In this document: in pieces, positions 16,740-63,031 of the stretch
Layout: each line of letters starts with the position of its first letter
Numbering within the stretch: the first letter of the stretch is position 1
Source: Patescibacteria group bacterium
Lineage (GTDB): Bacteria > Patescibacteriota > WWE3 > UBA101185 > UBA10185
Length of the DNA stretch: 64,000 nucleotides
Reading direction: 5' to 3'
Assembly (NCBI GenBank): GCA_049322215.1
Contig: JBMORU010000001.1
Coordinates: forward strand, 324,023-388,022
Translations under genes and position numbers: made by a program
Notes under the pieces: generated by a model
Told to the model about the DNA's origin: nothing
Database searches by the model: none
What the model saw: only the letters and a program-made list of their open reading frames with translations

Positions 16740-17372
16740 ATGTCTACAAAAAAATCTACAAAAAGCAAAGGTTTAACCGCGCCTTTAAACGTGGTTTATG
16801 TTTTAGTTTTAGTACTTTTAGCTAGTTTGTTTGGAAATGCTTATCAATATGCTAAAAGTAATCACTTATATCGTTTTGCAGAAGATGCTGTAAACAGTAA
16901 TCCATTATTAACAGGCGTAAACCCAGCTAAACCGATACCAGGTAAACCCTGGACTTTAGTTGGTAAGAGTTTAGGTAGTAAAAAAGGTCAAGTGGTTTTT
17001 AAGCATGAAAACGAAACTATACCTGCAAAAGTAGAATTTTGGAGTGATGTTCAAATTCTTGTTAAAGTACCTGAAAATTTAAAAATTGACACTACTTATC
17101 TAGTAGAAGTGTCTACAGTAGAACAAAGAACAAATGGAGATACATTAACCTTTCCTATAATTTGGGAAAACGGTGGGGAGTATACAACAGATTCGGATCA
17201 CTATTTATACACAGTTCAAACAGGTGATTCTTTATATAAAATAGCCAGAGATGAATTAGGTAGTGAAGCACGCTTTGAAGAAATCATAGAATTGAATAGA
17301 GTAAGCTATCCTGGTTTGTCTCAATACAGCCCTTTGTCTTTAGGGATGGAACTAAAATTACCAAATGAATAA
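16740..17372 (+). CDS. Membrane-anchored protein with a C-terminal LysM domain
   Basis: N-terminal TM helix and a C-terminal LysM-like segment (YTVQTGDSLYKIARDELGSEARFEEIIELN). The last 8 nt overlap the next gene. Confidence 0.6.
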   Translation: MSTKKSTKSKGLTAPLNVVYVLVLVLLASLFGNAYQYAKSNHLYRFAEDAVNSNPLLTGVNPAKPIPGKPWTLVGKSLGSKKGQVVFKHENETIPAKVEFWSDVQILVKVPENLKIDTTYLVEVSTVEQRTNGDTLTFPIIWENGGEYTTDSDHYLYTVQTGDSLYKIARDELGSEARFEEIIELNRVSYPGLSQYSPLSLGMELKLPNE

Positions 17373-25673: not shown

Positions 25674-26582
25674 ATGCAGGACTTGCCCACAGATAACACA
25701 AACAATAATAATTCTGGTAGTCAGCACCCAAACCCATTTTATATTGATGATAGTACAGAAATTGATTTAAACTCTACCCAAGAGCAAGTATCTACGCTTA
25801 AACATGAAAGTGCTGTTGAACCTACTCCACCGACTGTTGCAGAACCTGTGCCTTCCCCTGATCCTACTTACATAAATCCTCAACCCGTTGTTGTTGCCGA
25901 GCCAGTACCTTCGGCACCTATACCTGCAGTACCTATACCCGTGCCCGAACCTGTTATACCAGAACCCTTGCCATCAGTGCCTTCCCCACCTGAGGTTTCT
26001 GCAATGCCCAGTATTTCAAGTACTACTATAGAAAATTCTGCCCCCAATGATTTTACACAAGAGAATGTTCCCGAGTGGATGCAAGTGCAACCAATAGCAG
26101 ATAGTAATATGCCTTCTCCCGATGAAGAAGAGGGTTTACTTGAGGACGGAAATCCGTTTGCTGAACCCTCAGATACCGCTGTGTCTCAGCCACCTGTTAC
26201 GCCTCAAACCCCTATAGTATCTAGCACTACAAGTGGAGGTTTAGAAGGAGTTGGAAGTGAAAGCTTAAGTTCATTTGCACCTGTTGAATCAGTACCTGAA
26301 GCTCTACCAAGCGAACTTGCCCCCGAGGTTTTGAGTACGTCTGAATCTGCAGAGTTTCAAACTCCGGCACCCGCAGCACCAACACCAGCCATGCCTCAGC
26401 AAGCGCCTGAAAATATTGTTCCTCAACAAATGCAAGCTTCTGATTTACAAGGGCATTTAATAGATAAAAGAACCTCCCATGAGCAGCTACACGAGGTTTC
26501 TAGCGTAGATCCTACTACCAAGTGGGCTGACGAAGAAGAGGAAGAGTTTATAGTTGGGGTAGAAGAAGCCCATAAACACTAA
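25674..26582 (+). CDS. Proline-rich, acidic, predicted intrinsically disordered protein (302 aa)
   Basis: Low-complexity PxPxP/EPVP repeats, no TM helix, acidic C-terminus (DEEEEEF). The stop codon overlaps the ATG of the downstream ATPase (TAATG). Confidence 0.55.
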   Translation: MQDLPTDNTNNNNSGSQHPNPFYIDDSTEIDLNSTQEQVSTLKHESAVEPTPPTVAEPVPSPDPTYINPQPVVVAEPVPSAPIPAVPIPVPEPVIPEPLPSVPSPPEVSAMPSISSTTIENSAPNDFTQENVPEWMQVQPIADSNMPSPDEEEGLLEDGNPFAEPSDTAVSQPPVTPQTPIVSSTTSGGLEGVGSESLSSFAPVESVPEALPSELAPEVLSTSESAEFQTPAPAAPTPAMPQQAPENIVPQQMQASDLQGHLIDKRTSHEQLHEVSSVDPTTKWADEEEEEFIVGVEEAHKH

Positions 26583-32000: not shown

Positions 32001-32574
32001 TGTTGAACCTGAACCTTCGCCAATAGAGTTTCAAGGTTCGGTAGAAGCTGATGTTGCCTCTATTAAAGAGCTTCTTAGCGTAGGGGAACTTCGTGGATTT
32101 GCTCATAACTACAGAGGTTGGGGTGGTGAAGGACAGCGTAATTTTCATGGAGGTATTTCAGGTAACGAGGCCGATTGGATGCATACCTGGCTTGAAGAAG
32201 AAGTCGCTGTTGATGCTGACTTTGTACAAAATGGTGGCTCACAAGTTGACTTGATAACCTCTCCAGAAATTTTAGAACCCTTAGACTTACAACCGGGGCA
32301 AGCAGTTTTACGTTTAACTTACAGAGTAAATCAAACTGAAGGAAACGAACCTGGTGAAGGTGCCACATTTAATGCATATATGGTTGTTCCAGAAGCTGCA
32401 GGAAACGCTTTTTGTGATTCTATAGAAGCCAATGAACAACAATTTGATTATGCTGCACGTGTAATGGCAGAAGCTTTAGACGAAAAGCTTTATTTAGATA
32501 ACGAAGGGTATAACGTTCCTGCTGGACAGGGTAACAATATACTAAACGTCAGTGGAGTTAAAGTTAATCGTTAG
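29050..32574 (+). CDS. Giant (1174 aa) highly acidic, coiled-coil-rich protein with no TM segment; possible secreted substrate or partner of the upstream ATPase
   Basis: Uninterrupted ORF that is D/E-rich throughout, with a central ERK-rich coiled coil and internal imperfect repeats. No catalytic motif recognised. Confidence 0.6.
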   Translation: MPADVIEAQDKQDVFEKAHNIESENEPEGRASRATSRAIEFGERAIEGMNRDEKRHHQEILNSFKERVQNLNPDQQPPDSPDNQAYHDLPNEINDYLFEQWQLGIVEGLNLITDQADAALQNPDVREAVFQVMNVIAENGIDLDDDDLELSDRLTPIVTAANQYVENHFISFNDFVERHNLREYDENTELDEVYDFRAEQTDSREADVQTLSAALEEIIPDPNAEIDRSPTMEMGDTTWGHFVPNREAWNNTFFNDSSEVLSAVVSEELRDRKGEIPKDLRPSQHVSLVSGYTRRKGDNAIVQAPILSINIKKTELQVPHNEVVTDIRKLRPDHPTVMNRRITNPGALYEWEQQLMNAVIEENEFKKPDERRVRFVTTSVDKQMKPVNKLLEVSYEDYNQMVRATQSARAQYERVGIKVEKDPEAEKETLTEFGKSLNRAEYLKTRERMASYLDAEISRLREEGNDYLADQMESSKDSLVYMYQELSIHYDSDAYHNAAAKENLRSRLEGDDSIAEGSDEWNTMLTDEIAQLRLEYSYKAVVYKDHAEYLGSQIDMLLESGDRASAQAMLLNLDKLIEIEARAYYLTDVQDIVENPETSTDEDPDYLPLKSVDEFRQEMYALSEGFLRKGTNKEAELVTIGAEMQEEWGEAISLWQQLDETFGDELHNLSLFELEVLAVLEDKHLLGARVEALQPSEADIHTSDFLETQFKGMFGREPTEEEWYFVTLQMMRQQYDDNLASTTHLNGGIESLMTYVSNNYNQNSLVERSNNGLFEHARYLLDVNEVSHLEAERLRLQTQAGLAAENEDLERKDQIREYMQKRARDRQEHNAAVRKMNEQVELNNRERKNQEELRKANAELLKKRNEARDRQQQEIIDQEAKAKLRESESLAREVAKENSAALDNSEQIAEARAVLRAAEERARAVAEENAQGVDNSEQVAAAQEELRAAEDHVREIAEENAAAESELNNLPEDIVDEVEQVTEIVEPEPSPIEFQGSVEADVASIKELLSVGELRGFAHNYRGWGGEGQRNFHGGISGNEADWMHTWLEEEVAVDADFVQNGGSQVDLITSPEILEPLDLQPGQAVLRLTYRVNQTEGNEPGEGATFNAYMVVPEAAGNAFCDSIEANEQQFDYAARVMAEALDEKLYLDNEGYNVPAGQGNNILNVSGVKVNR
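31729..31950 (+). repeat. Imperfect tandem repeat of about 93 nt x 2.4 inside the giant ORF (encodes AEENAxxxDNSEQxAxAxxxLRAAExxxR)
   Basis: Direct comparison of 31729-31821, 31822-31914 and 31915-31950 shows roughly 60-70% nucleotide identity and a repeated peptide motif. Confidence 0.5.
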
Positions 32575-43166: not shown

Positions 43167-43613
43167 TTAAAACCCAGGAATTTCAATAAGCATGCTTAAC
43201 CCATAGGTTCCGAGTACGATGTAGGCTAGTGTTTCAGGCATTTGGATTAAGAACTCAATAAAGGTGACGATCGCTATAACCACAACGCCCTGTTTGTCTA
43301 GCAATGTTTCAAGCTCAGTTGGAGGTTGCAGCGCACCTGTAAAGTAGCTTATTACGATCACAATTAGCACCGCGGCATACCAAAGGTATTTATGTGAACG
43401 CACTTCTCTACTTACGAACTCACCAAACAGAATTACCGAGCCGAAGGTTACTACCGCTGGTTCTAATGGGTGTAGCACTCCTGGAGTCTGTGCCAATACG
43501 ATTAGAAACAGAGCTGGAACGATATATAAGATATCTTTTGGCATAAAAACCGTTTTTCCTGCTGGCCAAACTATACGTTTATACGAATTAGTCGGGATTT
43601 GTTTGTTGCTCAT
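43167..43613 (-). CDS. Hypothetical polytopic membrane protein (148 aa)
   Basis: Four hydrophobic helices and no motif. Confidence 0.5.
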   Translation of the reverse strand: MSNKQIPTNSYKRIVWPAGKTVFMPKDILYIVPALFLIVLAQTPGVLHPLEPAVVTFGSVILFGEFVSREVRSHKYLWYAAVLIVIVISYFTGALQPPTELETLLDKQGVVVIAIVTFIEFLIQMPETLAYIVLGTYGLSMLIEIPGF

Positions 43614-46967: not shown

Positions 46968-47297
46968 ATGAAAATCAAACTTCATGGTTCTGACATTGCA
47001 CGAGGTGTTTTTCAAAAGTTAGCCCCAGGTCTTAAATCCCCCTTACCTGCTAAAGGAAAAACATTGCAAATCAACGTTCAGCTCAATGTACGTGAAAAAG
47101 AAGGCAGTCCGGGAGAGTACGAAGTTGTGCTTGAAAATTTACCGTTGCAAAACTTATTGAAGCAAGCGCAACGCGAAGGTGCTGAAAAAGTAATTGCTAT
47201 GCTTGAGACCAAGCGCACGGTAGCATTCGACTCCTGGTTCACAGATGATTCACGAAAAGCTTGGAGTTGGTTCAACGACTGGAAGCCCTTCAAGTAG
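46968..47297 (+). CDS. Hypothetical small soluble protein (109 aa) with noticeably higher GC than its neighbours
   Basis: Strong RBS aaggag, followed by a strong terminator. No motif recognised. Confidence 0.45.
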   Translation: MKIKLHGSDIARGVFQKLAPGLKSPLPAKGKTLQINVQLNVREKEGSPGEYEVVLENLPLQNLLKQAQREGAEKVIAMLETKRTVAFDSWFTDDSRKAWSWFNDWKPFK

Positions 47298-48840: not shown

Positions 48841-49911
48841 ATGGTAGAATTGGATCCCGAAAAATATCACTCATTCAAGGTAAAAAACAAATTAGTTTAT
48901 TTAGTGGTAGTGCTGATTTTTGTGCTTTCGGGTTTGGTTGCTTCAATAAAATACTATGAGTTTGCTGTTAATCGTGCAGCACAAACCGTAGACGAAAGTA
49001 CATTTGATATAAAAAAGGGCGAAGGTATTAGTACTATATCTGAGAATTTGTTTTCTGCAGGTTTAATTAATTCTCCTAACATTTTCAAAATTTATCTTTA
49101 CTTGAATAACTTGTCTAGCAAAATTCAAGCGGGTGTTTATACAATACCCGCAGGTACTTCGGTGGTTGAACTTGCTGAGTTGTTTCAACATGGAACTAAC
49201 GATAAAAGTGTAACTTTAATTGAGGGTTGGCGTGTAGAAGAATTTGCTATTAAGCTTACTGATGAGTTTGAGAATATTGATTACGCCACTTTTGTTTCTC
49301 AAGCACGTCGTTATGAAGGTTATTTATTTCCTGATACTTATAGTTTTGCATCTGATGTAGGTGCTGTTGAAGTGTTAAACAAACTTGTTTCTACATTTGA
49401 AACAAAAACAGAGGATATTCTTACAGATGAAAATTTAGCTAAAGCGGGTTTAACCAAAGAGGAAGCTGTTATTTTTGCATCAATTCTTGAACGTGAAGTA
49501 AATACTAATGAGGATATGCCTATTGTGGCTGGAATACTTATTAAAAGATGGCGCAATGGAGAATTAATAGGTGCTGATGCTACAACCCAGTATGCGGTAG
49601 CTACAGTAGATACTGATTGCACGGCTGCTGACGACTTAACGGTGTGTCCTGGCGAAACGGAAGCTCGTGCTATAACTTGGTGGAAGTCAGACTTATATCA
49701 AACTGATTTGGCTTACGAAAGCCCTTACAATACAAGATTGCGTGCAGGTTTACCTCCTACACCAATATCAAATCCAGGATTAGCCTCCATTGAGGCGGTA
49801 ATAAACCACGTTCCTACGTCGTATAATTATTATTTAACAGATGCTGATGGTGTTACGCACTATGCAGAAACGCTTGAGCAGCATAATTTAAATATCTCTA
49901 CTTATCTTTAA
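48841..49911 (+). CDS. mltG: Endolytic murein transglycosylase MltG (YceG-like)
   Basis: N-terminal TM, a LysM-like segment, and a YceG core (IIEGWRVEEFA...EASIIEREV motif region FASILEREVNTNEDMPIVAGILIKR). Confidence 0.7.
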   Translation: MVELDPEKYHSFKVKNKLVYLVVVLIFVLSGLVASIKYYEFAVNRAAQTVDESTFDIKKGEGISTISENLFSAGLINSPNIFKIYLYLNNLSSKIQAGVYTIPAGTSVVELAELFQHGTNDKSVTLIEGWRVEEFAIKLTDEFENIDYATFVSQARRYEGYLFPDTYSFASDVGAVEVLNKLVSTFETKTEDILTDENLAKAGLTKEEAVIFASILEREVNTNEDMPIVAGILIKRWRNGELIGADATTQYAVATVDTDCTAADDLTVCPGETEARAITWWKSDLYQTDLAYESPYNTRLRAGLPPTPISNPGLASIEAVINHVPTSYNYYLTDADGVTHYAETLEQHNLNISTYL

Positions 49912-50022: not shown

Positions 50023-53000
50023 ATGAGAAAATTTGCAACTGTCTTTATTGTTTTATTAGGCGTTTTTGTTTACTCTTTGGGCTTATTGCCTCAAGGTTTA
50101 GTATCTGTGCCTTCTGCAAAAGGCCAAACTCTTACTCAAGGTCCTACCGTACATGTACACCCTCAAAACCCAAAGTATTTTGCGGATTCTAATGGGAATC
50201 CCTTATATTTAACAGGTTCACACACTTGGGCTTTATTACATCAACATCCTGATATTTCAGCGACCGACACGTCCGACGCGCATATGGCGGAGTTTTTAGA
50301 TACTGTGCAGGGTCATGGAAATAATTTTGTGAGATTTTGGTCTAACAGTTCTTATTTAGAATCAAAGCCATTCCCTTGGAAAAGAACTGGCCCAGGTACT
50401 GCTGCAGATGGACTTCCAAAATTTGACATGAAAAGTTTTGATAATAGCTATTTTACGAACTTACGTAAAAAAGTTGAAATGATAGAAAATAGAGGAATGT
50501 ATGCTTCGGTGATGCTGTTTGGCTCTTACAATGGGATTAAAAGTGACTGGGCAAATAATTCTGCTTGGTATCCAGGGAATAACATTAATCCTGAGTTGGC
50601 TTCTGCTTTTACCAATAGTAATCCACAGTCCTTTTTTACTACAAATTCAGCTGCTTTAGCTATACAAAAGTCATTAGTAAAACGAACAATTGATGAATTA
50701 AACCATTTGGACAACATAATGTGGGAAATTATGAATGAGCCAGATATGCCCCCAAGCGAAGTTTGGCATAATGAAATTATTGCCTATATTCGTGACTATG
50801 AAGCTACTAAACCAAAACAACATTTAATTGTAGCAACAACCGGCGGTGCTAGTGGCAATTTAAATAGCAGTTTATACAAAACAACAGCCGACGTAATTGC
50901 GCCTACAGTACGTGAGGTGAATTATAAAGATGGTGGCCCTGTGAATTACGACGCTAAATTAGTATTTGTTGATAGTGATCACTTATATGGGTATTCAAAA
51001 CTAGCCCAGAAACCCGATATATTAGATACACTATGGAAAAGTGTAACAAGAGGGAATCATTTCATATTTATGGACTCTTATGATACTGTCGATCCTGTTG
51101 GTAATGATGGTTTTGTAGATCCCGCTTGGAATGTTGTGCGAGACTCTATGGGAATTTCGAGAGAGTATTTAGGTAAAATGGATTTAGTCAAAGTTACGCC
51201 TAGCATTACTATATCTAGCACTGGTTATAGTTTAGTAAATCCTGGGAAGGAATATTTGGTATATCAACCTAGCAGTAAAGCTTTTACTGTTAATTTAACT
51301 GCTGGAGACTATGATTATGAATGGTTTAATACAAGTACCGCGAAAGCTTCGAATACAGGTACTATAACTGCTTCTGGTGGTAATTATAATTTCACTTCCC
51401 CTTTTGGTTATCCTGCCCTATTGTTTATAAAGGCTTCTACATCTACACCTCCTCCCCCTCCTGCTGACCCAGTGTGTGGGGACAACCAATGTAATGGGAA
51501 TGAAACATGTAGCACGTGTGCTTCGGACTGTGGTGTATGTGCTCCGCCACCATCTATTCCTCCTGCAGTAGGAAAGTTAGAAGCGGAGGATGCTGCCTTT
51601 GGGGATACATCCGCAGGCACCACTAAAATTTCTCAAGTACACACGGGATATAGCGGTAGTGGTTATATAGATATGAGTGACTTTCCAAACGGAAAAGACA
51701 GTTTTATTGAATGGACCATGGATGTAGCTACTGCCGGGAAATACAAATTAGACTTTAGCTATGCTTTAAATGGAACCACACGTTCTGTAGATCTTTTTAT
51801 AAATGGGCAAAATGTTGGCACTATAAACTTTACTTCAACAGGTTCTTGGACTTCAAGGGTAGAGATTGGGAATGAATATGATTTGCCTAAAGGCATTGTT
51901 AAGGTGCGCATACAGGCTACGGGTTTATATGGCGGGCCTGATGTAGATTACATGCGTGTAACCGAAGTTTCTGTGCTTCCTCCAGCACCCCCTATCTGTG
52001 GAGATAATGAGTGTAATAATGGTGCTGAGACCTGTGATACTTGTTCTGCGGATTGTGGTACTTGCCAAGATCCCACACCACCACCATCTAACACTGGTAA
52101 ACTCGAAGCTGAAGACGCCTCCTATGGAGACAATTACAAATTAGGTACTACTAAAGTGGCCACTGAGCATTCTGGTTACAGTGGTAGCGGTTTTGTTGAT
52201 ATAAGTGACTATCCTAATGGTAAAGGTGGTTATGTAGAATGGGAATTTAATGTAGAGAATGCGGGTACCTACAGCTTAGATATAGCCTATGCCCTGTATG
52301 GAGGTAAGAGGTATATGAATTTGATTGTTAACGGATCTTCGTTGGGAGAATTACCTTTTGCTAAAACTGGCGCGTGGGACAAATGGAGTATGGCAACAAA
52401 AGCTGTGGTGCTTAAGAATGGAACAAACACAGTACGTTTAGAAGGTACTCGAAGTAATGGCGGCCCTAATATAGATTATTTAAACACCCAATTACTAGTA
52501 TCTTCTAGCACTAAGTACGAAGCTGAAAATGCAGTTTTTGGAGATATTGTTGGTGGGGGTAAAACTAAGGTAGCAAAAGATTTTAATGGATATAGTGGCA
52601 CAGGGTTTATAGACTATAGTGATTTACCTGCCGGAACAGGCAGTTTTGTTGAATGGTCTGTAGATACTGGCGACGCAGGTGAATACCTTTTAAAGTTTGC
52701 ATATGCATTAGATTCGAAAAGTACTTGGATAGCTCCAAGCGGGGGTAGACCCTTAGACTTAACAGTAAACGGTAAACTAATTGAAAATATAACCTTTTTT
52801 GGAACCGGGAACTCTTGGGAAGCCTGGGATTCTTTAAGCACTATGGTGCCATTAAATGAAGGTACAAATAAAATTCGATTACAGGCAACCCACATGTCAG
52901 GAGGTCCCAATATGGATTATTTAGAGGTTACTCCCGTAAATGGGCTTCAGCCTACTGGGGGTGCCGCATCAGCTAACTCTTCTGAAGTTACGCTGTCTCC

Positions 53001-53586
53001 ATTTAGTAATAGTTCTTTAAACGCTGTAAACAACACAGTTGATTCTCAAGGTGATGAAGTACCTCAAAGTATTGAGCCTGTAACTTCTTCTGAATCCGAA
53101 TACGTTACTCCAACAGAATCTAATATGGTTTTTAGCACTAGTTTTGAAAAAGATCCAATGGGGGATTTCAGTACAAGCGGGAGACAGGCTGAATTTTCGT
53201 GGGCATCTGATACTGCACATACAGGGGGGCACTCATTAAAAACTGTAGTAAAAGACAGTAGATATTATGGAAGTTGGACAAGCAAACGCACTTATGTACA
53301 AGCTGAGGCTAATCAAACATATGATCTTTCACTATGGTTAAAAGGAGTAAACGTAACCGATGGGATGACTGTAACAATGAGCTATTACGGGGGTTTATCA
53401 GGCACACAATATTTAGGTAGATTTGAAACTACTGTGCCTTCTTCTAAGGTTACTCCCTCATGGAGTCAAACGGCTGTTCAAGGCGCAGCTCCAGAAAACA
53501 CAACATATATACGTGTGTCTATTAGTCTTAAAGGTTCTGGAACCTTATGGGTGGATGATTTAGAGGTGCAAAAGGTTTTGCCCTAA
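50023..53586 (+). CDS. Secreted multidomain glycoside hydrolase: GH5-like (clan GH-A, DUF4038/GH140-like) catalytic domain, 3 CBM6/CBM35-like modules, a CBM4_9-like module, and Cys-rich/Pro-Thr linkers
   Basis: Signal peptide, then a catalytic NEP motif (MWEIMNEP). Three repeats follow of LEAEDAxxGD...GYSGSGxxDxSDxPNGK...WxxxVxxAGxYxLxxxYA...GxR...LxxNG......GPxxDY. The C-terminal ...TLWVDDLEV is CenC-type. Linkers: CGDNQCNGNETCSTCASDCGVC and CGDNECNNGAETCDTCSADCGTC. Confidence 0.7.
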   Translation: MRKFATVFIVLLGVFVYSLGLLPQGLVSVPSAKGQTLTQGPTVHVHPQNPKYFADSNGNPLYLTGSHTWALLHQHPDISATDTSDAHMAEFLDTVQGHGNNFVRFWSNSSYLESKPFPWKRTGPGTAADGLPKFDMKSFDNSYFTNLRKKVEMIENRGMYASVMLFGSYNGIKSDWANNSAWYPGNNINPELASAFTNSNPQSFFTTNSAALAIQKSLVKRTIDELNHLDNIMWEIMNEPDMPPSEVWHNEIIAYIRDYEATKPKQHLIVATTGGASGNLNSSLYKTTADVIAPTVREVNYKDGGPVNYDAKLVFVDSDHLYGYSKLAQKPDILDTLWKSVTRGNHFIFMDSYDTVDPVGNDGFVDPAWNVVRDSMGISREYLGKMDLVKVTPSITISSTGYSLVNPGKEYLVYQPSSKAFTVNLTAGDYDYEWFNTSTAKASNTGTITASGGNYNFTSPFGYPALLFIKASTSTPPPPPADPVCGDNQCNGNETCSTCASDCGVCAPPPSIPPAVGKLEAEDAAFGDTSAGTTKISQVHTGYSGSGYIDMSDFPNGKDSFIEWTMDVATAGKYKLDFSYALNGTTRSVDLFINGQNVGTINFTSTGSWTSRVEIGNEYDLPKGIVKVRIQATGLYGGPDVDYMRVTEVSVLPPAPPICGDNECNNGAETCDTCSADCGTCQDPTPPPSNTGKLEAEDASYGDNYKLGTTKVATEHSGYSGSGFVDISDYPNGKGGYVEWEFNVENAGTYSLDIAYALYGGKRYMNLIVNGSSLGELPFAKTGAWDKWSMATKAVVLKNGTNTVRLEGTRSNGGPNIDYLNTQLLVSSSTKYEAENAVFGDIVGGGKTKVAKDFNGYSGTGFIDYSDLPAGTGSFVEWSVDTGDAGEYLLKFAYALDSKSTWIAPSGGRPLDLTVNGKLIENITFFGTGNSWEAWDSLSTMVPLNEGTNKIRLQATHMSGGPNMDYLEVTPVNGLQPTGGAASANSSEVTLSPFSNSSLNAVNNTVDSQGDEVPQSIEPVTSSESEYVTPTESNMVFSTSFEKDPMGDFSTSGRQAEFSWASDTAHTGGHSLKTVVKDSRYYGSWTSKRTYVQAEANQTYDLSLWLKGVNVTDGMTVTMSYYGGLSGTQYLGRFETTVPSSKVTPSWSQTAVQGAAPENTTYIRVSISLKGSGTLWVDDLEVQKVLP

Positions 53587-54011
53587 GCTTTCTCAACTAT
53601 TTCTTTGGTAACTTTTATAGCTTCTCTATCTAAAACTTCTTGTTCAACAAAAATATCAGAGTCAAACCTAATTGCCAACGCAACGGCATCTGTAACTCGT
53701 GCGTCCACGTCAAGTTCCATTTGACCTAGTTTTAAACGCACATGTGCGTAATAAATATCTTCTTTACTGTAGTAAATCACTGCTGATGTAATTGAGGCTC
53801 CCATAGAGCTTATTAATCGCCTAGTTGTATCATGAATATGCGGTCTGGCGCAGGGTATAGCGTGTTCTGCCATAGTAAGAGCTTTTGCAGAGTCACTTTC
53901 AATATTTATTGGTAATAGTATGTTAGATTGTTCGTCAAACAGATAAACAGTGTATTCTGCTGCGTTGTTTGGGTCAGGAACTATAGCTTTTATAAGCACC
54001 TGTTTTAACAT
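53583..54011 (-). CDS. Bifunctional nuclease family protein (BFN/DUF151)
   Basis: A 142-aa protein starting MLKQVLIKAIVPDPNNAAEYTVYLFDEQSNILLPINIESDSAKAL... matches the BFN-domain pattern (VxxxxDxxxNxPVVLLxxxxxxRxLPIxIGxxEAxAI). Confidence 0.6.
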   Translation of the reverse strand: MLKQVLIKAIVPDPNNAAEYTVYLFDEQSNILLPINIESDSAKALTMAEHAIPCARPHIHDTTRRLISSMGASITSAVIYYSKEDIYYAHVRLKLGQMELDVDARVTDAVALAIRFDSDIFVEQEVLDREAIKVTKEIVEKA

Positions 54012-54080: not shown

Positions 54081-54542
54081 ATGGTTTTGCTTATGGAAAA
54101 TCTTAACCTGCCCAATTCTCAATTGTCGAAAATTCAAGGCTTAAAGGGCAAAAAATTGATTATTTTCTTATTATCTATTTTTGTGATTTTTGCATCAGTT
54201 GGCGCTGGTGTGGGTTTTGTAATTGTAAAAGATGACAAGCCCGCGCAATCTGCAGATAATAATACTGCGCAGGACGTTCCCATAAATGTGACCCAGGAGA
54301 TTATGTACAAAGGACGTATAACTTTTGTAGAGCCTTTGCTTTATCCAGAAGACGAGATATCATTTGCTTTGGTGAACTCTTCCAGTGAGCGAATTATTTT
54401 ACTCAAGGCCTTTGATCAAAAGTTAGAAGTTGCAGAGGGACATTTTGCAGAAGTTTACGGTAAACTTATAAAGACAAAAAATGGTAAGGAAGATGTATTA
54501 TTAGTAAATAAAGTTGTAATTGCTAATCAGTTATCTAAATGA
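54081..54542 (+). CDS. Hypothetical membrane-anchored protein (153 aa)
   Basis: One TM helix and no motif. Confidence 0.45.
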   Translation: MVLLMENLNLPNSQLSKIQGLKGKKLIIFLLSIFVIFASVGAGVGFVIVKDDKPAQSADNNTAQDVPINVTQEIMYKGRITFVEPLLYPEDEISFALVNSSSERIILLKAFDQKLEVAEGHFAEVYGKLIKTKNGKEDVLLVNKVVIANQLSK

Positions 54543-54543
54543 T

Positions 54544-55230
54544 ATGTCACTATTAAAATTTGAGAATGTAAAAAAAGAATATCCTACCGGAGTTATCGCA
54601 TTAGATACAGTAAACTTGACTGTTGAACCAGGTGATTTTGTTTTTTTGGTTGGACATTCTGGTGCTGGTAAATCTACCTTGGTTAAGTTGCTTATAAGAG
54701 AAATTTTACCTTCTTCAGGAGATATAAAAATTGATGGACAAAGTATTGTTGAACTTTCTAAAGATATGTTACCAACATTACGTCGTAAGGTAGGTGTAGT
54801 ATTTCAAGATTTCAAAGTCTTAAATTCAAAAACAGTTTTTGAAAATGTGGCTATAGCCTTAGAAGTTGTCGATACCCCCTGGCATGAAATAAAAGAGGTT
54901 GTTCCTAATGTTTTGGCTCTTGTGGGTTTAGCAGATAAGGCCGAAAGGTTTCCTGATCAGCTGTCGGGTGGTGAGCTACAAAGATTATCTATTGCCCGTG
55001 CTTTAGCACATGAACCCTTACTTTTGGTTGCCGATGAACCGACAGGCATGATAGATCCAAAAGCATCTGAAGAAGTAATGCAAATTCTTGAAAAAATAAA
55101 TGATTTAGGTACCACTATAATAATGGCTACACATGATCAAGCAATTGTAGACAAAATGAAAAAGCGAGTACTACGCTTAGAAAAAGGGCGTTTAAGTTCG
55201 GATAAGCAAGGAGGTAAGTACCATGCATAA
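54544..55230 (+). CDS. ftsE: Cell-division ABC ATPase FtsE (likely start at MSLLKF..., 54544; the track ORF starts at 54520)
   Basis: Walker A GHSGAGKST, ABC signature LSGGELQR, Walker B LLVADEPTG. Followed by ftsX overlapping by 8 nt. Confidence 0.85.
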   Translation: MSLLKFENVKKEYPTGVIALDTVNLTVEPGDFVFLVGHSGAGKSTLVKLLIREILPSSGDIKIDGQSIVELSKDMLPTLRRKVGVVFQDFKVLNSKTVFENVAIALEVVDTPWHEIKEVVPNVLALVGLADKAERFPDQLSGGELQRLSIARALAHEPLLLVADEPTGMIDPKASEEVMQILEKINDLGTTIIMATHDQAIVDKMKKRVLRLEKGRLSSDKQGGKYHA

Positions 55231-56131
55231 AACTTGGACAGCTTTTACAACAACTTTAAGACGTGAAAAATTACTTAGCCTTACAAATATTTCTGCTATG
55301 ACTGTTACGTTTTTCTTTTTAGGGATTTTTGTTACTGTTGGTGTTATTTCCCAAACAGCTATTACCCTTCTTGAAGATCAAGCGCAAACAACAATATTTT
55401 TTAAAGACGATTTCCCTGAAAATTCTATAATTAATCTAAAAGAAACATTAGAGTCTGATGCGCGCATTTCTTCAGTTGTTTATATATCAAAACAAGACGC
55501 ATTTAATATTTTTAAAGAAATCAACAAAGATGATCCAATTTTGTTAGAAGCTATCACTCCTGATATTCTTCCTGCAAGCCTAGAAATAAAAACAGAAGAT
55601 ATTAACGACCTTTCAATAGTTGCTGGTGAATTTGAGAGCTTAGATGGTGTAGAAGAGGTTAAATTTTTTGAAGATGTAATTTCTCGATTTAGAAATTGGA
55701 CTCAAACCATTTATGCTTATGGAATTATTTTAATGGCTATGTTTTTCTTAATTTCTTATTCCGTTGTGGTTGTGACTCTGCGAATGACAATTAACTCAAA
55801 AGGTGCTGAGTTAGAAATTATGAAGTTAGTTGGTGCTTCAGATTCTTATGTTAAGTCACCTTTGCTGTTACAGGGAGTGTTTTTCGGCTTTGTATCTGCC
55901 ATTGCGTCCTCAGTACTTTTGTTAATTGTATATTTATTGTATTTTGAGTTTAATGTGTTTAATATTTCAGGTTTGATTGGGTTATCAAATTATTCTGTTA
56001 CTGTACTTAGAGGTGTTACTGTTACTCAGTATGTTTATTTAGGTATTTTATCGTTGGTCTTAGTTATATCAGGTGTTATTTTGGGATATTTGGGAAGTTG
56101 GACTGCTGTTAGAAAATACTTAAAGTATTAA
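55223..56131 (+). CDS. ftsX: Cell-division permease-like protein FtsX
   Basis: TM1, a large periplasmic domain, then three C-terminal TM helices. Immediately downstream of ftsE. Confidence 0.8.
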   Translation: MHKTWTAFTTTLRREKLLSLTNISAMTVTFFFLGIFVTVGVISQTAITLLEDQAQTTIFFKDDFPENSIINLKETLESDARISSVVYISKQDAFNIFKEINKDDPILLEAITPDILPASLEIKTEDINDLSIVAGEFESLDGVEEVKFFEDVISRFRNWTQTIYAYGIILMAMFFLISYSVVVVTLRMTINSKGAELEIMKLVGASDSYVKSPLLLQGVFFGFVSAIASSVLLLIVYLLYFEFNVFNISGLIGLSNYSVTVLRGVTVTQYVYLGILSLVLVISGVILGYLGSWTAVRKYLKY

Positions 56132-56133
56132 GT

Positions 56134-57411
56134 ATGAAAAAACTATTATTTATATTTTTGCCCTTTTTAATTTTTACCCTTTTGTATTTTGGAGGGGAAT
56201 TTGTTGTTCATGCTCATCCCGAAGGGTTTTTAAGCCACATAGGGGGCACTGAGTCTGAAGATGCTCCGGTAAAAGATGAATCTACTAAAGCAGCCGAAGA
56301 AGCTCAAAAGGAATATGAAGAAAAAGTTGAGGAGCTTGAAGAAAAAATAGAAGAATATGAAGATAAAATAGATAATTTGCATAACGAAGCTTCCTCATTA
56401 TCTAAAGAAATCGAGCTGACTGACAGCCAAATTGGCTTAACTACATTAAGGATTCAAAGTACTCAAACCGAAATAAATCAAAAAGAACATGCCATAACCA
56501 ATTTGGCAGAAGATATAGATGAATTGAAGCTTCGTATAGAAAAACTTAAAGATAATATGGATTACCAGCAAGTTGTACTTTCTGAAAGACTACGCGCTCG
56601 TTACAAAGTTGTAGATAATTCTTTTGTTTTGGTTTTATTTGGCTCGGATGATTTATCGAGTGCTATACAAAAATCGGAATACTTAAAAATAATGAGTCGG
56701 TATGATCAAAAACTTCTGGATCAAATGCGTGAAACAAAAGAAGCTTTTGGTTTGCAACGCGACATTTTCGAAGAAAAAAAGCAGCAAGAAGAGAGTTTAA
56801 AAGCACAAATTGAGCAACAAAAACAAGAATTAGAAGTTTATAAAGTACAACTTGATCGTCAAAAAGAAGATAAAGAAGATTTACTAGAGGAAACACAAAA
56901 TGATGAGCAGAAGTATCAGCAACTACTGGCTCAAGTTCAGTCCGAGTTAGCTGCGCTTCAATTGGCAATAGACTTGCCCGAAGGAGAAGGTGAAAAAGTT
57001 AAGGAGGGGGATATTATTGGACTAATGGGTAATACCGGCTGCTCCTCTGATGCCCACTTACATTTTGGTTATGTGAAGAATGGGACTGCCCGCGACCCAC
57101 TGTCTCAACTGGACTCTGGTAACATAGCTTGGCCCGTGGACAACCCTAGAATTACGCAGGGTTTTGGGGCGAACTATACTTTTTACATGAATAATTTTGG
57201 TATTCCTGGTCACGATGCTTTAGATTTGGTTTCAGGTCAATGTTATGGGTCTGCATGTGCTGGTGCCCCCATCAGGGCAGCTAAAGATGGCGAGCTATAC
57301 TATGCCAAAGACGCTAAAGTTTACTGCCCACGGTTAAATAACTCCATTGGAAAAGGCGCGATAATCGACCATGGTGACGGAGAACGCACCATTTACTGGC
57401 ATCTACAGTAA
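56134..57411 (+). CDS. EnvC-like coiled-coil protein with a C-terminal M23 metallopeptidase domain
   Basis: Long coiled coil (aa 50-280), then an M23 LytM-like region (GLMGNTGCSSDAHLHFGY; HxxxD/HxH motifs). Adjacent to ftsEX, the conserved FtsEX-EnvC module. Confidence 0.75.
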   Translation: MKKLLFIFLPFLIFTLLYFGGEFVVHAHPEGFLSHIGGTESEDAPVKDESTKAAEEAQKEYEEKVEELEEKIEEYEDKIDNLHNEASSLSKEIELTDSQIGLTTLRIQSTQTEINQKEHAITNLAEDIDELKLRIEKLKDNMDYQQVVLSERLRARYKVVDNSFVLVLFGSDDLSSAIQKSEYLKIMSRYDQKLLDQMRETKEAFGLQRDIFEEKKQQEESLKAQIEQQKQELEVYKVQLDRQKEDKEDLLEETQNDEQKYQQLLAQVQSELAALQLAIDLPEGEGEKVKEGDIIGLMGNTGCSSDAHLHFGYVKNGTARDPLSQLDSGNIAWPVDNPRITQGFGANYTFYMNNFGIPGHDALDLVSGQCYGSACAGAPIRAAKDGELYYAKDAKVYCPRLNNSIGKGAIIDHGDGERTIYWHLQ

Positions 57412-58825: not shown

Positions 58826-59143
58826 ATGTATAAAATATTTATTGACTCAACTAAACGTTTTGAAAAACAAGTTAGCTTGTTTTCAGATGGCAAAGAAATC
58901 GCACATAAGCAAGGGGACATTGATATTGTTGCATCAATTGATTCCCTTTTGAAGGAGTCAAACTTATCGACAAAAGATATCCAAATTTTTGATGTAAATA
59001 AAGGCCCTGGGTCTTTTACAGGGTTAAAAATAGGTGTAACAATTGCCAATGTATTAAATTGGGCACTTAAAGGCATACCTGTTTCAGACTTAGTTTTACC
59101 AGATTATGGGAAAGACCCTAATATTCAACCTCGTAAATCTTGA
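58826..59143 (+). CDS. tsaB: Mini-TsaB (YeaZ-like N-terminal half only, 105 aa)
   Basis: Start (ATG 58826-58828) overlaps the tsaE stop TAA (58823-58825) by one base (TAAATG). NKGPGSFTGLKIGVTIANVLNWALKGIPV matches the TsaB GPGSFTGLRIG motif. The second actin-like half is absent. Confidence 0.55.
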   Translation: MYKIFIDSTKRFEKQVSLFSDGKEIAHKQGDIDIVASIDSLLKESNLSTKDIQIFDVNKGPGSFTGLKIGVTIANVLNWALKGIPVSDLVLPDYGKDPNIQPRKS

Positions 59144-61016
59144 CTTCATTATTTGTAACTTTTTCTTTGGCTATTTGTGAAAACACTTTATTATCATATT
59201 CTTCGCTAATTATATATTTTGCGTTGTATTTTTTTAGCAAATTTAAAACTTCATTTGTATCGTTTGAGAAAAATATCAAATTAATATCTTTTTTTCTTTC
59301 TTCAATATCTTGCGTGTTATTTCTCCAGCCCATTTCGTGGTTTGCCCATCCTAATATTGTTGGAACACCAGAAAATGTTGTGTATAGAGATTTATTATCG
59401 TTTGCATTTCCATAAAATTCTGCAGTTACAGAACTTGACGGCAAACTTTGTAAAAATTTTACGCCTTCTTTTTGACTTTTGCTTAAAAAACTTGTTCCTT
59501 CTAAAGTACTGTTTGTACCTGCATAAAAGGTCCCAAGTATCAAAAACGATGGGTAAATTACACTCATAACAATGACTAGTTCTATGAACAAATATTTAAA
59601 CTTATGCAAGCGGGATTGTACATGCGTTTGTAATATTTCTGTCACCATAATTGCTGAGCTTATTCCCCATAATATCCATGCTTGATACCATAGTTTGTAT
59701 AAAGTATTGGCTCGGTAAAATGGTGTGTTTTCAGAAAAGTAAATATCTTTAACAAAAACCAACTCTCCTATCAAAATAAGCACCAGTGCTGTTAGCAACG
59801 TTGTAGCAATAGTTTTATTTTTTAAATTTTTAAAATAAAAAAAGTAAAACATAGTTATTAAAGCAAAACTACCAAACATTAACCCAATTGCCTTGAAACC
59901 AGAGAAGTTTGTATTTAAACCTATACCCTGAACAGGTACTTTAAATGTTTGTAAAAAGGGTAATACCAAAATAATTGACACCAATAGTGGAATAGCAAAA
60001 TACTTGAAGCCAATTAGCTCTTGCTTTTTGCGTTTATATATTAATATACCAATTCCTAGAAAAACTAGGTAGATAAAAAAATCCCAACTATTTATTAAAT
60101 ACATTAAGGCAAATGCTATTCCTAAAAAATATTGTGCGTTTCGGCTTTTTTCGCTTAAAGATAAAAATATTAAACAAATTGTAAAAATAACTACAGGAAT
60201 ATTCATTACGTGAGCATGAATACCCCCTCCAAAGAAACTATAAGAAGGCATATCATTTATTGTGTAAGGTACTATTCTAGTCGTTTTAGAAAAGTCTAAA
60301 TCTATGCCTGTGGGGTTTGCAAAAAGTAAAATGATTGAATACATATTCCCACTAAGTACTACAAAAAGTACTGTTAAAAGGCCTGTTAAGTATTTTTTTG
60401 AAATTAAAACACCAAGTCCGAAAACTGAAGTTACTGTTTGTGCAAATATTCCCGCAAAACCAAGATTAAAGGCAACTTCTGGAATAGTACTTGTTAACTT
60501 AGTCAGAGTAGCTAAAGTTAAGTGTCCAAAATAATAATAATTTATAGACTTTCCTGAAAACCAAATATCTATAGGAGGCATATGCTCAAATTTAACTAAG
60601 CTATTAAAAATAGCGAAATTGGTGAAGTCTTCGGGTTTTATGAGTTTTCCAAAGTTAGTAGTTAAATAGAAAAGCATAAAAAAGAAGCTGATTACAAACA
60701 TAAGCTCAGATATGGCGAAAACTTTAATTGTATTAAAACTAAATGCGCGGTGTCTATGAAACATGGCTAATGCAATTGCTATAAGGCTTAGTAATAGTAA
60801 TACTATAATTGTTAGTTTTTGACTAAATGCTGTTATATTTGCTATAGAAATAAGCCATGCTATGTAGCTTATCAGTGCAACTCCTAAAACCTTTCCAAAA
60901 AAAACACTTAATTTTAAGTTTTTGGTTGAGGAGTATAAAATTATTGTTCCGATGATTCCTAAGTATAAATATGTCGAATACCAAAGTAACACCTGACCTA
61001 AGTTTTCATAAGACAT
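59118..61016 (-). CDS. Large polytopic YYY-motif membrane protein (DUF2298 / Chlor_Arch_YYY family), putative GT-C-type glycosyltransferase
   Basis: About 14 TM helices, the hallmark SINYYYFGH motif, and a C-terminal soluble domain. Family assignment recalled from memory. Confidence 0.6.
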   Translation of the reverse strand: MSYENLGQVLLWYSTYLYLGIIGTIILYSSTKNLKLSVFFGKVLGVALISYIAWLISIANITAFSQKLTIIVLLLLSLIAIALAMFHRHRAFSFNTIKVFAISELMFVISFFFMLFYLTTNFGKLIKPEDFTNFAIFNSLVKFEHMPPIDIWFSGKSINYYYFGHLTLATLTKLTSTIPEVAFNLGFAGIFAQTVTSVFGLGVLISKKYLTGLLTVLFVVLSGNMYSIILLFANPTGIDLDFSKTTRIVPYTINDMPSYSFFGGGIHAHVMNIPVVIFTICLIFLSLSEKSRNAQYFLGIAFALMYLINSWDFFIYLVFLGIGILIYKRKKQELIGFKYFAIPLLVSIILVLPFLQTFKVPVQGIGLNTNFSGFKAIGLMFGSFALITMFYFFYFKNLKNKTIATTLLTALVLILIGELVFVKDIYFSENTPFYRANTLYKLWYQAWILWGISSAIMVTEILQTHVQSRLHKFKYLFIELVIVMSVIYPSFLILGTFYAGTNSTLEGTSFLSKSQKEGVKFLQSLPSSSVTAEFYGNANDNKSLYTTFSGVPTILGWANHEMGWRNNTQDIEERKKDINLIFFSNDTNEVLNLLKKYNAKYIISEEYDNKVFSQIAKEKVTNNEVKIYEVEY

Positions 61017-61076
61017 ACAACAATTATATATAATTGCCTTTATACAATACAGCTTAAATGATAGAATAATCCCGTT

Positions 61077-62051
61077 ATGAAAGTACTAATCACAGGTGTT
61101 GCAGGTTTTATAGGTTCAAATTTAGCGGAATATTTACTAAATAATGATTACGAAGTGGTAGGTATAGATAACTTTAATGAGTTTTATAAACGAAAAATTA
61201 AAGACTATAACATTAAAGACTTTGTTAACAATCCAAATTTTAAGTTGTACGAAATAGATATTACCGATGAAGCCTCTTTAGAAAATACTTTTAAAGAGGA
61301 AAGTGGTTTTGATGCCGTAGTTCACTTAGCTGCTTGGGCAGGGGTTACGCTTTCTATAGAAAAAGCTGTTGTTTATGTAAAAAACAATGTAGAGGGTACC
61401 GTAAAACTTTTGGATACTATGGTTAAATATGATACTAAGAATATAATTTTTGCTTCTACATCTTCTGTTTACGGAAATAATCCAACGCCATTTAAAGAAA
61501 ACATGATCACAGATCACCCCTTTGCGCCGTATCCTGCTACAAAAAAGGCCTGTGAAATTATGCTTAGCACCTATTCTAGAAATTTTGGTGTTAACGTTAG
61601 TGTTTTTAGAATTTTTAATCCGTTAGGTCCTAGAGTAAGACCCGACTTGGCGATGCCTAAACTTATTAGGTCTTGTTTATATGGCACTGAGTTTCCACAA
61701 TACCAGGACTCAGAAAAAACCGGGCGTGATTACACTTATGTGAAACATCTTTTTGAAGCTATGGAATATGTTTTTCAACATCCTTTTACCTACGAAATTT
61801 TCAATGTTGGTAATTCTTCACCTGTTACTTTAGGAGAATTAGTTAATACAGTAGAAAAGGTAGTGGGTAAAAAAGCAAATATCAAAGCTATGCCTCAACG
61901 TCAGGGTGAAATGGTTCAAACCTATGCAGATATAAGTAAAGCAAAGTCTATGCTAAACTACAATCCTTCTACTACAATAGAAGAAAGCGTTAGTATTTAT
62001 TACGAATGGTTTATAGCCCAGGAAGACTGGTATAAAAAAGGTGAATTTTAG
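61077..62051 (+). CDS. NAD-dependent sugar epimerase/dehydratase (SDR, UDP-glucose/glucuronate 4-epimerase-like)
   Basis: Rossmann GxxGxxG (ITGVAGFIGSNLAEYLL) and the catalytic YxxxK (PYPATKK). Confidence 0.8.
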   Translation: MKVLITGVAGFIGSNLAEYLLNNDYEVVGIDNFNEFYKRKIKDYNIKDFVNNPNFKLYEIDITDEASLENTFKEESGFDAVVHLAAWAGVTLSIEKAVVYVKNNVEGTVKLLDTMVKYDTKNIIFASTSSVYGNNPTPFKENMITDHPFAPYPATKKACEIMLSTYSRNFGVNVSVFRIFNPLGPRVRPDLAMPKLIRSCLYGTEFPQYQDSEKTGRDYTYVKHLFEAMEYVFQHPFTYEIFNVGNSSPVTLGELVNTVEKVVGKKANIKAMPQRQGEMVQTYADISKAKSMLNYNPSTTIEESVSIYYEWFIAQEDWYKKGEF

Positions 62052-62071
62052 CCTGCTCAGATAAGGACATT

Positions 62072-63031
62072 ATGAGTAAATTAGTATCAATAATAATACC
62101 CTGCTACAACGAAGAAAAAAACATTAATAGGACTTTTGAAGGTTTAATGAAACTGGCTGAAACACACAAGTACGATTTTGAAATTATTGCTGTAAACGAT
62201 GGAAGCAAAGATAATACCTGGAACGTAATTAAGGAATATGCCAATAAATATGAAATGATTCAAGGTATTAACTTTATGACCAATTTTGGTCAAAGTTGTG
62301 CTTATCAAGCAGGTTTTGACGCTTCAAAAGGTGACTACGTAATAACTGTGTCTGCTGATTTAGAAATCCCATTGGAAAACATAAACAACGTAATAGATAA
62401 ACTGGATGAAGGTTACGATTTTGTTAATACACACAGAGTAGGACGTTGGTCTGATGAAAAGGCATCTAGGCAGGCAAAAAGCGGTATGGCTAATAAAATT
62501 ATTACTGCTATTTCTGGTGTACATATGAACGATAGAGGTTCGGGACTTAAAGGCTTTAAGCGCGTAATTATAGATAATCTACGTCTTTATGGAGAAATGC
62601 ACCGTTTTATTCCTGATTACGTTTCAGTATATGGAGCAAAAATGACCGAGTTTGAAGTGGAATTTAAAGATAGAGATTTTGGCACTTCAGCATACTCTGG
62701 ACACAAAAGAACTATAAAAGTGCTCTTAGATTTAGTAACACTAGCCTTTATGTTGCAGTTTGCTAAAAAGCCTTTCTTAATGAAGCCTGGGCGTTTATTC
62801 GGTGCTACTGGGGCCGTTATATCAGGATTTGGATTTTTAATTGGCATTTATCTTACTGTGCTTAAATTAATGGGGGAAAGTATAGGGGGAAGACCCTTAC
62901 TACTTGTAGGCGCTATATTAATTATTGTTGGTATCCAGTCAATTATGCTTGGTATGTTTGGTGAGTTGCTTGTACGAATTTACTTTGAATCGTCAGGTAG
63001 AAAAACATACACAGTAAGAGAAAACGCATAA
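62072..63031 (+). CDS. GT2 polyprenyl-phosphate glycosyltransferase (DPM1/ArnC/GtrB-like) with two C-terminal TM helices
   Basis: VSIIIPCYNEEKNI..., a DxD (NDGSKD), a ...SGLKGFKR motif and a C-terminal TM hairpin typical of GtrB/ArnC. Confidence 0.8.
   Translation: MSKLVSIIIPCYNEEKNINRTFEGLMKLAETHKYDFEIIAVNDGSKDNTWNVIKEYANKYEMIQGINFMTNFGQSCAYQAGFDASKGDYVITVSADLEIPLENINNVIDKLDEGYDFVNTHRVGRWSDEKASRQAKSGMANKIITAISGVHMNDRGSGLKGFKRVIIDNLRLYGEMHRFIPDYVSVYGAKMTEFEVEFKDRDFGTSAYSGHKRTIKVLLDLVTLAFMLQFAKKPFLMKPGRLFGATGAVISGFGFLIGIYLTVLKLMGESIGGRPLLLVGAILIIVGIQSIMLGMFGELLVRIYFESSGRKTYTVRENA

Follow-up and report, generated by a model that had tools for sequence, protein, structure and literature searches.

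What would a patescibacterial cell with a reduced genome do with an exported protein of 1187 residues, most of which are carbohydrate-binding modules (CBMs)? The question is raised by the open reading frame (ORF) 50023..53586 (+) in a stretch of 64,000 nucleotides (positions 324,023 to 388,022 of contig JBMORU010000001.1; hereafter the window). The ORF opens with an ATG codon, and its product is identical to the NCBI protein MFZ5424545.1, which carries the name 'carbohydrate-binding protein' and belongs to a metagenome-assembled genome (MAG) of a Patescibacteria group bacterium. Its length and its hundreds of homologues far exceed chance, and the gene is, by these measures of sequence, real. 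It lies on a 1,112,869-bp contig (~1.1 Mb) that also encodes MltG, MiaA, FtsK and other flanking proteins of the window, in agreement with the reduced genome, typical of the Candidate Phyla Radiation (CPR), that the original prediction had proposed from the DNA letters alone.

Homology and structure prediction support a candidate enzyme that is exported, modular and of the type of glycoside hydrolase (GH) clan GH-A, with four CBMs. We consider it reasonably probable that this protein is a Sec-exported modular enzyme and belongs to a small set acting on one extracellular polysaccharide. It is the largest investment in an extracellular enzyme within the window, as originally claimed.

The head domain and its putative active site

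The N-terminus (aa 1-34, 50023..50124; all features of the protein are given on the forward strand) reads by eye like the signal peptide that had been announced, with MRK, a 19-residue hydrophobic core and A-K-G. In homologues, the conserved domain starts directly behind similar hydrophobic N-termini, and the mature conserved domain begins at aa ~40 in the present protein. It comprises a predicted catalytic-type (β/α)8 barrel (aa ~41-391, 50143..51195), delimited with AlphaFold2 (AF2), Foldseek and homologues, and a β-sandwich domain packed after the barrel as in GH140 (aa ~392-471, 51196..51435; AF2 strands, residues 358-437 of the modelled fragment). The AF2 model of this head, built from a 51-sequence alignment, reached a mean predicted local distance difference test (pLDDT) score of 90.3 and displays eight β/α units followed by the β-sandwich. 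Its nearest structures in Foldseek are the GH140 enzyme BT_1012 (5MSY/3KZS; 5msy at E 8.4e-16), the GH140 structure 8T9W (E 3.4e-15), the GH5 mannanase ManDH5 (9GPE, with the best TM-score, 0.65), BVU_2644 and BVU_0362; the values are E ~1e-15, TM 0.57-0.67 and 13-15% identity.

The fold group is thus recognizable, and the family is distant from all the named ones. On the protein itself, the Pfam Cellulase model (PF00150) scores 30.0-32.1 bits against a cut-off of 23.5, covering profile positions 2-177 of 272 only, and the Apiosidase/GH140 model (PF13204), with a cut-off of 26.5, gives 27.4-29.6 bits over no more than positions 2-131 of 320. DUF6298 (PF19815) remains below its cut-off of 28.1 bits whether the full protein (24.9) or the isolated domain (27.1) is scored, with a match to positions 207-367 of 487, and PF12904 on the β-sandwich is weak (E 0.089) and below its cut-off. 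Among 51 family members, DUF6298 is matched by 47, Apiosidase by 32, PF12904 by 26 and Cellulase by 11, all weakly (best E 1.6e-13). Because none of these matches is strong, the head is best described, from its sequence relationships, as a separate family within the GH-A-like fold group, distantly related to GH5, GH140 and DUF6298. When the PDB sequences were searched with a profile of the family, GH140 was not reached, and the only matches were 4N0R (E 0.012) and two GH5s (E 0.2-0.7). Several homologues are labelled DUF6298 by NCBI and JGI; literature searches for DUF6298 and for ManDH5 found no paper in the library searched, and the GH140 and DUF4038 literature held nothing on this family. 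More than 764 homologous proteins share 35-49% identity with the head and none exceeds 49%. At least 580 loci occur among the GTDB species genomes, mainly in Planctomycetota, Verrucomicrobiota, Acidobacteriota, Nitrospirota and Bacteroidota, with some in Omnitrophica, Patescibacteria and archaeal MAGs. Most members are single-domain proteins of 440-520 aa that carry no CBM. A more elaborate architecture was seen in an Omnitrophica WOR_2 MAG (L010:5482-11226), where an ORF of at least 1914 aa contains two copies of the family and a third, GH140/4N0R-like barrel that keeps the β7 Glu, the barrel copies being set apart by Ig-like repeats.

The conservation of single residues, counted over 121 aligned family members, outlines what may be the active site. 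R104, W106, E235, E239, H267, D317, D319 and H320 are invariant (121/121), and N238 and K312 are conserved in 120. The MWEIMNEP motif, which had been spotted beforehand, is present at aa 233-240, with E235, N238 and E239 (near-)invariant and the Pro of NEP variable (Ala in 48 members, Ser in 34, Pro in 9). The Asn-Glu pair of the family aligns to the NEP of the GH5 cellulase 1TVN, the NEW of BVU_0362 (4N0R) and the NE of related domains. In the AF2 model it stands directly after β4, the position of the acid/base in clan GH-A, so E239 (50737..50739) is the putative general acid/base. The β7 strand of the model ends at D317, the first residue of D317-S318-D319-H320 (50971..50982), a putative nucleophile region that would replace the Glu usual in this clan. 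Two related GH-A-like domains possess a β7 Glu: one is a 4N0R-like neighbour in L031 ("FETSWE"), the other is domain three of the L010 protein from Omnitrophica ("NNESGDF"). In profile alignments, this Glu falls beside D317 or on D319. The head therefore presents a barrel fold and a β4 Asn-Glu as in clan GH-A, and an invariant Asp instead of Glu at β7. We infer from alignment and model that its active site is probably functional, E239 serving as acid/base and either D317 or D319 as nucleophile or base.

How far the label 'GH5-like' applies follows from these comparisons. The clan GH-A-like barrel and the β4 Asn-Glu hold, and the assignment to GH5 proper does not, given the partial Pfam match and the missing β7 Glu. 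With GH5 (ManDH5 9GPE, Cel5G 1TVN), the head shares the clan GH-A fold, the 'E-I-x-N-E-P' motif at β4 and a TM-score of 0.65, but it lacks the β7 Glu, is only 14-15% identical and has an additional C-terminal β-sandwich. The top Foldseek match, GH140 (BT_1012, 3KZS/5MSY; 8T9W), has the same two-domain build of a barrel followed by a β-sandwich, its PF13204 cut-off is marginally passed, and an Asp is also found among the catalytic carboxylates of BT_1012, whose catalytic pair is Asp187/Glu284 (PMC4032388). However, identity is limited to 13-15% and the catalytic pattern is reversed, with Glu at β4 and Asp-x-Asp-His at β7 versus Asp187 (β4) and Glu284 (β7) in BT_1012. DUF6298 (PF19815) is the Pfam model most often matched by the family (47/51), but the matches are partial (~207-367 of 487) and weak, and the present protein remains below the cut-off. 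The original prediction had also proposed that the lack of a catalytic Glu pair would denote a non-catalytic, lectin-like protein. The β4 N238-E239 is present and the β7 Glu is absent in 121/121 members, which by that rule is a warning; the invariance of the putative active-site residues in the same 121 sequences nevertheless favours catalysis over a lectin.

The shared cassette and the β-helix partners

Downstream of its head, the protein carries a series of modules that recurs in the same genome. The top two matches of the C-terminal module are P0128 (MFZ5424388.1, 1167 aa) and P0135 (MFZ5424938.1, 1374 aa), whose genes are on the same 1,112,869-bp contig. P0128 shares the entire cassette (aa 464-1185 of our protein) at 55-56% identity, in the order six-Cys linker, CBM35, six-Cys linker, CBM35, CBM35, Ser/Thr linker and CBM4_9, and its N-terminal head is unrelated. 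P0135 combines another head with a CBM9, two six-Cys modules, CBM35s and a CBM4_9 module, with 33% identity over the cassette. Outside the protein under study and P0128, the full cassette was found in no further protein of a 5.8-billion-sequence collection. At least one further protein, and probably a second, thus bears the cassette behind a different head. The idea of a lone oddity has to be abandoned, since these two proteins of the same genome carry the CBM modules and other Patescibacteria (loci L019 and L045) carry members of the head family.

The three heads of this genome are a GH-A-like domain, a β-helix domain (P0135) and a domain of unassigned fold (P0128). For the last, single-sequence AF2 modelling gave no confident fold (pLDDT 33) and sequence matches were very weak (Pect-lyase_RHGA_epim at E 0.042, Sf6 tailspike at E 0.02). 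A comparable arrangement was reportedly described by Montanier et al. in 2009 for plant-cell-wall enzymes of Cellvibrio and Clostridium, in which different catalytic heads carry CBM35. The likeness to such shared-module enzyme sets resides in different catalytic heads that bear the same CBMs and converge on one substrate; the difference is that here, a CPR genome of 1.1 Mb holds copies (55% identity) of a whole four-module cassette with its linkers.

The N-termini of the two paralogues look different. P0128 (aa 12-36) and P0135 (aa 13-37) start with 'G-F-(T/V)-H-V' and a hydrophobic stretch reminiscent of type IV pilin-like leaders, unlike the classical-looking signal peptide described above, and may follow another path of export or anchoring. 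P0128 and its alternative-start form P0276 are encoded near two N_methyl (pilin-like) genes (L083:14131-14712 and 16498-16935).

The head of P0135 is homologous to L081_g2 (phmmer 4e-56), the product of a gene that scores as Beta_helix/NosD, and weakly matches the PL6 structure 6QPS (E 0.0014); by this homology, it is shown to be a predicted β-helix, lyase-like domain. L081 is a 34-kb metagenome contig from ENA with a cluster at 319-10036 that encodes, in order, P0277 (a member of the head family with LamG), the Beta_helix/NosD protein, a CBM9-FN3-PG_binding protein and two Chondroitinase_B/Pel9A-like proteins. Judged by its gene content, the cluster looks like a polysaccharide-degradation locus. 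P0277 is also the closest relative of our head by BLOSUM62 distance (0.496) in a neighbour-joining tree, and it carries a six-Cys module. Among 92 immediate neighbours of family members (54 loci), Beta_helix occurs four times and NosD three times. Through adjacency in L081 and through the CBM modules shared in the present genome, the GH-like family is therefore tied twice, independently, to β-helix lyase-like enzymes.

Binding modules and linkers

Three stretches of the protein are recognized by Pfam as CBM_35 (PF16990, 73.6 bits against a cut-off of 28) and CBM_6 (77.7 bits), in accordance with the three CBM6/CBM35-like repeats first read from the sequence. Repeat 1 (aa ~517-647, 51571..51963; GGPDVDY), repeat 2 (aa ~692-823, 52096..52491) and repeat 3 (aa ~829-970, 52507..52932) were delimited by Pfam, PDB matches and comparison of the repeats, which are 43-44% identical to one another (E 1e-36 to 1e-44). 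A recent tandem duplication was considered and rejected: DNA-level repeats among the copies are negligible, and since they share almost nothing in DNA, the triplication must be old. The repeats match CBM35s in the PDB at 35-40% identity (E 1e-15 to 1e-20; for repeat 2, 5x7o at 1e-20 and 2w47, 2vzp and 2w1w at 2e-18), and the closest solved structures are the uronate-binding 2W47, 2VZP, 4QB1 and 2W87 and the α-glucan-binding 5X7O. The binding-site signature of CBM35 consists of a Trp in region A and an Asn in region C (PMC9843283). Repeats 2 and 3 carry it as the Trp of TGAW/NSW and the Asn of GGPN, together with a basic Arg; in repeat 2, these three conserved residues stand in TGAW (Trp), GKRYM (Arg) and GGPNIDY (Asn). 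This Trp, Arg and Asn are those kept in Rhe-CBM35 (2W47/2W1W), Chi-CBM35 (2VZP), Xyn30D-CBM35 (4QB1) and Xyl-CBM35 (2W87), and the CBM35s that bind α-1,6-glucan (GH31 5X7O, CITase 5X7G) are likewise close to our repeats. The specificity loop, which makes the metal and uronate contacts, differs by a 3-residue insertion and altered residues (DxSDxPNGKGG vs YHNEVGG/YDNVAGS). In P0128, the equivalent of repeat 1 has the ligand-contacting GGPN, like repeats 2 and 3 of our protein.

The C-terminal module (aa ~1033-1187 plus the stop codon, 53119..53586) had been called CBM4_9-like. Its region aa 1011-1187 matches no Pfam family even at E up to 10, PF02018 included, and a word-indexed homologue search with it found nothing. 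A full HMMER search with this module yielded 385 homologues, in which the carriers of PF02018 score E 1e-59 to 1e-26. The PF02018 CBM_4_9 domain lies at the matched positions in 8 of 10 scanned homologues (P0127, P0131, P0134, P0136 and P0138 among them), and the two that lack it are P0128 and P0135 of the same genome, whose C-terminal modules are as divergent as the present one. The CBM4_9-like label holds because homologues carry PF02018 exactly on the matched residues, and by homology the module is shown to be a putative divergent branch of CBM4_9, with relatives that carry the domain and no direct match of its own.

As to the Pro/Thr and Cys-knot linkers that had been reported, two six-Cys modules with Pro-rich flanks were located by regular expression and inspection, CGDNQCNGNETCSTCASDCGVC (aa 485-506, 51475..51540) and CGDNECNNGAETCDTCSADCGTC (aa 659-681, 51997..52065), and a Ser/Thr/Asn-rich linker (aa 971-1032, 52933..53118) precedes the C-terminal module. 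The six-Cys module, of 22 residues and the pattern CGDxxCxxxE[TN]CxxCxxDCGxC, is an inter-domain linker that has no Pfam model. Both paralogues (P0128, P0135) and the nearest catalytic homologues (P0001, P0277) carry it too, as do P0133 and L082:2500-4203, and P0321 has ten copies in tandem. An NCBIfam scan of the protein and its paralogues gave nothing useful.

Proposed function, origin and surroundings

How might these parts work together? We propose that the protein would be exported via Sec and that its head would cleave glycosidic bonds, E239 of the Asn-Glu at the end of β4 acting as general acid/base and Asp317-x-Asp319-His320 at the end of β7 standing in for the usual nucleophile Glu. 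The four CBMs would hold the enzyme on an insoluble or cell-bound polysaccharide, and the protein would be one member of a small enzyme set aimed at this single extracellular polymer. The latter is plausibly an acidic polymer with uronates, either environmental (from plants, algae or biofilm exopolysaccharide) or part of a host surface layer, and its breakdown products may feed or otherwise serve a metabolically limited cell. The reading that needs the fewest assumptions, we infer, is an acidic polysaccharide on which lyase-like and hydrolase-like heads act together. Patescibacteria MAGs contain ∼15 predicted extracellular proteins each in one survey (PMC11495043). Since they have so few, three exported proteins of 1,167-1,374 aa with shared binding modules represent a notable investment. 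A bolder and, taken as a whole, rather doubtful version would be that the head founds a new GH family (clan GH-A fold, β7 Asp-x-Asp-His) with β-helix partners, and that the three-head cassette kit opens an acidic capsule or exopolysaccharide (EPS), possibly that of a host.

Several observations weigh against this proposal. The head family has no characterised member, no solved structure and no Pfam model of its own, and, with the canonical β7 Glu missing, its hydrolytic activity is putative. The three cassette genes are dispersed in the genome. The enrichment of neighbours is weak, no family being found at more than 5 of the 92 neighbours in the 54 loci; the lyase nature of the β-helix partners relies on weak or partial Pfam and PDB matches, and β-helix folds also include hydrolases. 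Among the CBM35s, repeat 1 keeps the region-A Trp but has Asp for the region-C Asn (GGPD), and its binding may be weak or different. Finally, the specificity loop does not contain the His of Rhe-CBM35, and an assignment of the CBM35 ligand from the signature residues was dropped, as the three-residue insertion in this loop makes the ligand not callable from sequence.

Alternative explanations differ in what they make of the same features. An ordinary GH5 endoglucanase or mannanase with CBMs, which would act on cellulose or mannan by the classical Glu/Glu retaining mechanism, could account for a PF00150 score of 30-32 bits above the cut-off of 23.5, for WEIMNEP, which fits the GH5 signature 'EI.NEP' of 1TVN, and for the best TM-score (0.65) coming from ManDH5 (9gpe). 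Yet the PF00150 match ends at position 177 of 272, before the nucleophile strand, the β7 position is occupied by Asp-x-Asp-His and not by Glu in 121/121 members, identity to solved GH5s is 13-15%, the PDB profile search finds GH5s at E 0.2-0.7 only, and matches to DUF6298 (47/51) outnumber those to Cellulase (11/51) among relatives. This explanation is very unlikely, and the GH5 cellulase label was rejected on account of the partial Pfam match, the missing β7 Glu and the low identity. The missing Glu could alternatively mean that the barrel is catalytically dead and lectin-like, the whole protein being an adhesin with which the small cell holds on to a polysaccharide surface or to a host. CPR cells are often episymbionts, most of the protein consists of its four CBMs and its NCBI name is merely 'carbohydrate-binding protein', all of which would suit an adhesin. 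However, E239, D317, D319, H320, R104 and H267 are fully invariant in 121 sequences at 35-49% identity, as expected of an active site, most family members are CBM-free single-domain proteins of 440-520 aa, which fits enzymes better, and GH140 provides an example of a functional Asp/Glu pair within this fold group. We therefore hold the adhesin to be unlikely, if somewhat less so than an ordinary GH5 enzyme. More credit, although its probability is still low, may be given to a weapon or grappling tool used against a host or partner cell, in which the cassette would bind a capsule, EPS or cell-wall glycan of that cell and the heads, three in all, would open this layer so that the bacterium can attach or take up nutrients. 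This explanation bears on the biological role and can be combined with the mechanism that we favour, a polysaccharide-degrading enzyme set. It would suit a genome of 1.1 Mb that spends heavily on large exported proteins with these targeting modules (at least one, and apparently two, besides the present one), in a group whose MAGs average ∼15 predicted extracellular proteins (PMC11495043), and the PG_binding_1 domains of relatives of the CBM4_9 module and of the L081 cluster. But most occurrences of the GH family are in free-living organisms that degrade polysaccharides (Planctomycetota, Verrucomicrobiota, Bacteroidota), and the closest CBM35 relatives are on plant-, fungal- or dextran-active enzymes.

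The two remaining explanations bear on the origin of the gene and on its place. A recent acquisition from a polysaccharide-degrading bacterium (horizontal acquisition as such had been suggested beforehand) would agree with a gene GC content of 0.39-0.40 against ∼0.35-0.36 in the window, and with a taxonomically patchy family whose subfamily at hand mixes distant groups. The codon and GC check that we ran shows otherwise: GC at third codon positions (GC3) is 0.279 against 0.252±0.049 and the synonymous-codon likelihood score -1.026 against -0.981±0.097, within 0.5 standard deviations, so there is no compositional sign of recent transfer. The excess of GC sits at codon position 2 (0.462) and is due to a composition rich in Gly, Ser, Thr, Ala and Pro. 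In addition, relatives reach 49% identity at most, paralogues of the same genome share the six-Cys linker and the cassette, and the housekeeping flanks hold no mobile-element genes. On native codon usage, shared cassette, distant relatives (<=49%) and flanks, a recent horizontal origin was rejected, and its probability is very low. A rough neighbour-joining phylogeny of the catalytic domain, likewise called for at the outset, splits the family into two subfamilies and places the protein in the taxonomically mixed one, together with Omnitrophica L010, Patescibacteria L045, Bacteroidota L003, Deltaproteobacteria, a Methanosarcinales MAG and metagenome proteins, but on a long branch and with no sign of recent transfer. 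The Parcubacteria member L019/P0063 falls in the other subfamily. Old exchanges of the head gene are plausible. The last explanation, which we rank as the least probable, is that the protein remodels the cell's own envelope glycan. It starts from the place of the gene, with MltG upstream and FtsE, FtsX and a PcsB-like M23 gene downstream, and from CBM35 being known on the peptidoglycan esterase Ape1 (bioRxiv 10.1101/2021.09.23.461501). However, the gene closes a run of same-strand genes and faces a convergent nuclease gene, which places it outside the FtsEX unit; the paralogues are in unrelated housekeeping contexts; and family members elsewhere adjoin GH123, GH140-like and β-helix genes, not cell-division genes.

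The modular layout is textbook design for a carbohydrate-active enzyme (CAZyme), and what is new is an uncharacterised family, the β7 motif and a copied targeting cassette. A head family present in hundreds of species from many phyla, with a non-canonical putative second catalytic carboxylate, is a target for enzyme discovery. A cassette copied whole to a second protein and partly to a third offers a handle on the polymer or partner that this CPR bacterium lives on. Besides, since the PGAP name is just "carbohydrate-binding protein", CAZyme inventories of CPR bacteria drawn from standard models would miss the catalytic part.

The surroundings of the gene are of a different nature. The window otherwise encodes housekeeping functions (DnaK, IF-2, PNPase, RNase J, AlaRS, MiaA/MiaB, MltG, FtsE/FtsX/M23); no tRNA or Rfam element was found in it, and promoter and terminator scans remained at background level. 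YceG/MltG is located upstream at 48841..49911, and FtsE, FtsX and the M23/PcsB-like protein downstream at 54520..57411. The gene is the last of its strand run, and its stop region overlaps by 4 bp (53583-53586) with the end of the convergent gene 53583..54011 (-), which encodes a protein with a bifunctional-nuclease (BFN) domain. Because of this convergence, and because the paralogue P0128 (as P0276) has only unrelated housekeeping and pilin-like genes as neighbours, the position beside MltG and the FtsEX/PcsB-like genes looks coincidental.

Some other ORFs of the window stand out. Two adjacent large ones, at 26582-29008 and 29050-32574 (+), encode 808 and 1174 aa with no Pfam match at E<=1e-5, and the second is annotated as hypothetical protein MFZ5424525.1. 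Four short ORFs (10159-11157, 43167-43613, 46968-47297) stand apart by a GC3 of 0.34-0.41 (mean of the window, 0.25) and by synonymous-codon scores that are the most atypical; the three high-GC3 ORFs that were scanned gave no Pfam match, and 46968-47297 also had none in another scan. About 6 kb downstream of the gene, a DUF2298 membrane protein (-), an NAD-dependent sugar epimerase/dehydratase and a family 2 glycosyltransferase (GT2) are encoded together at 59118-63031 and form a small group for envelope-glycan synthesis.

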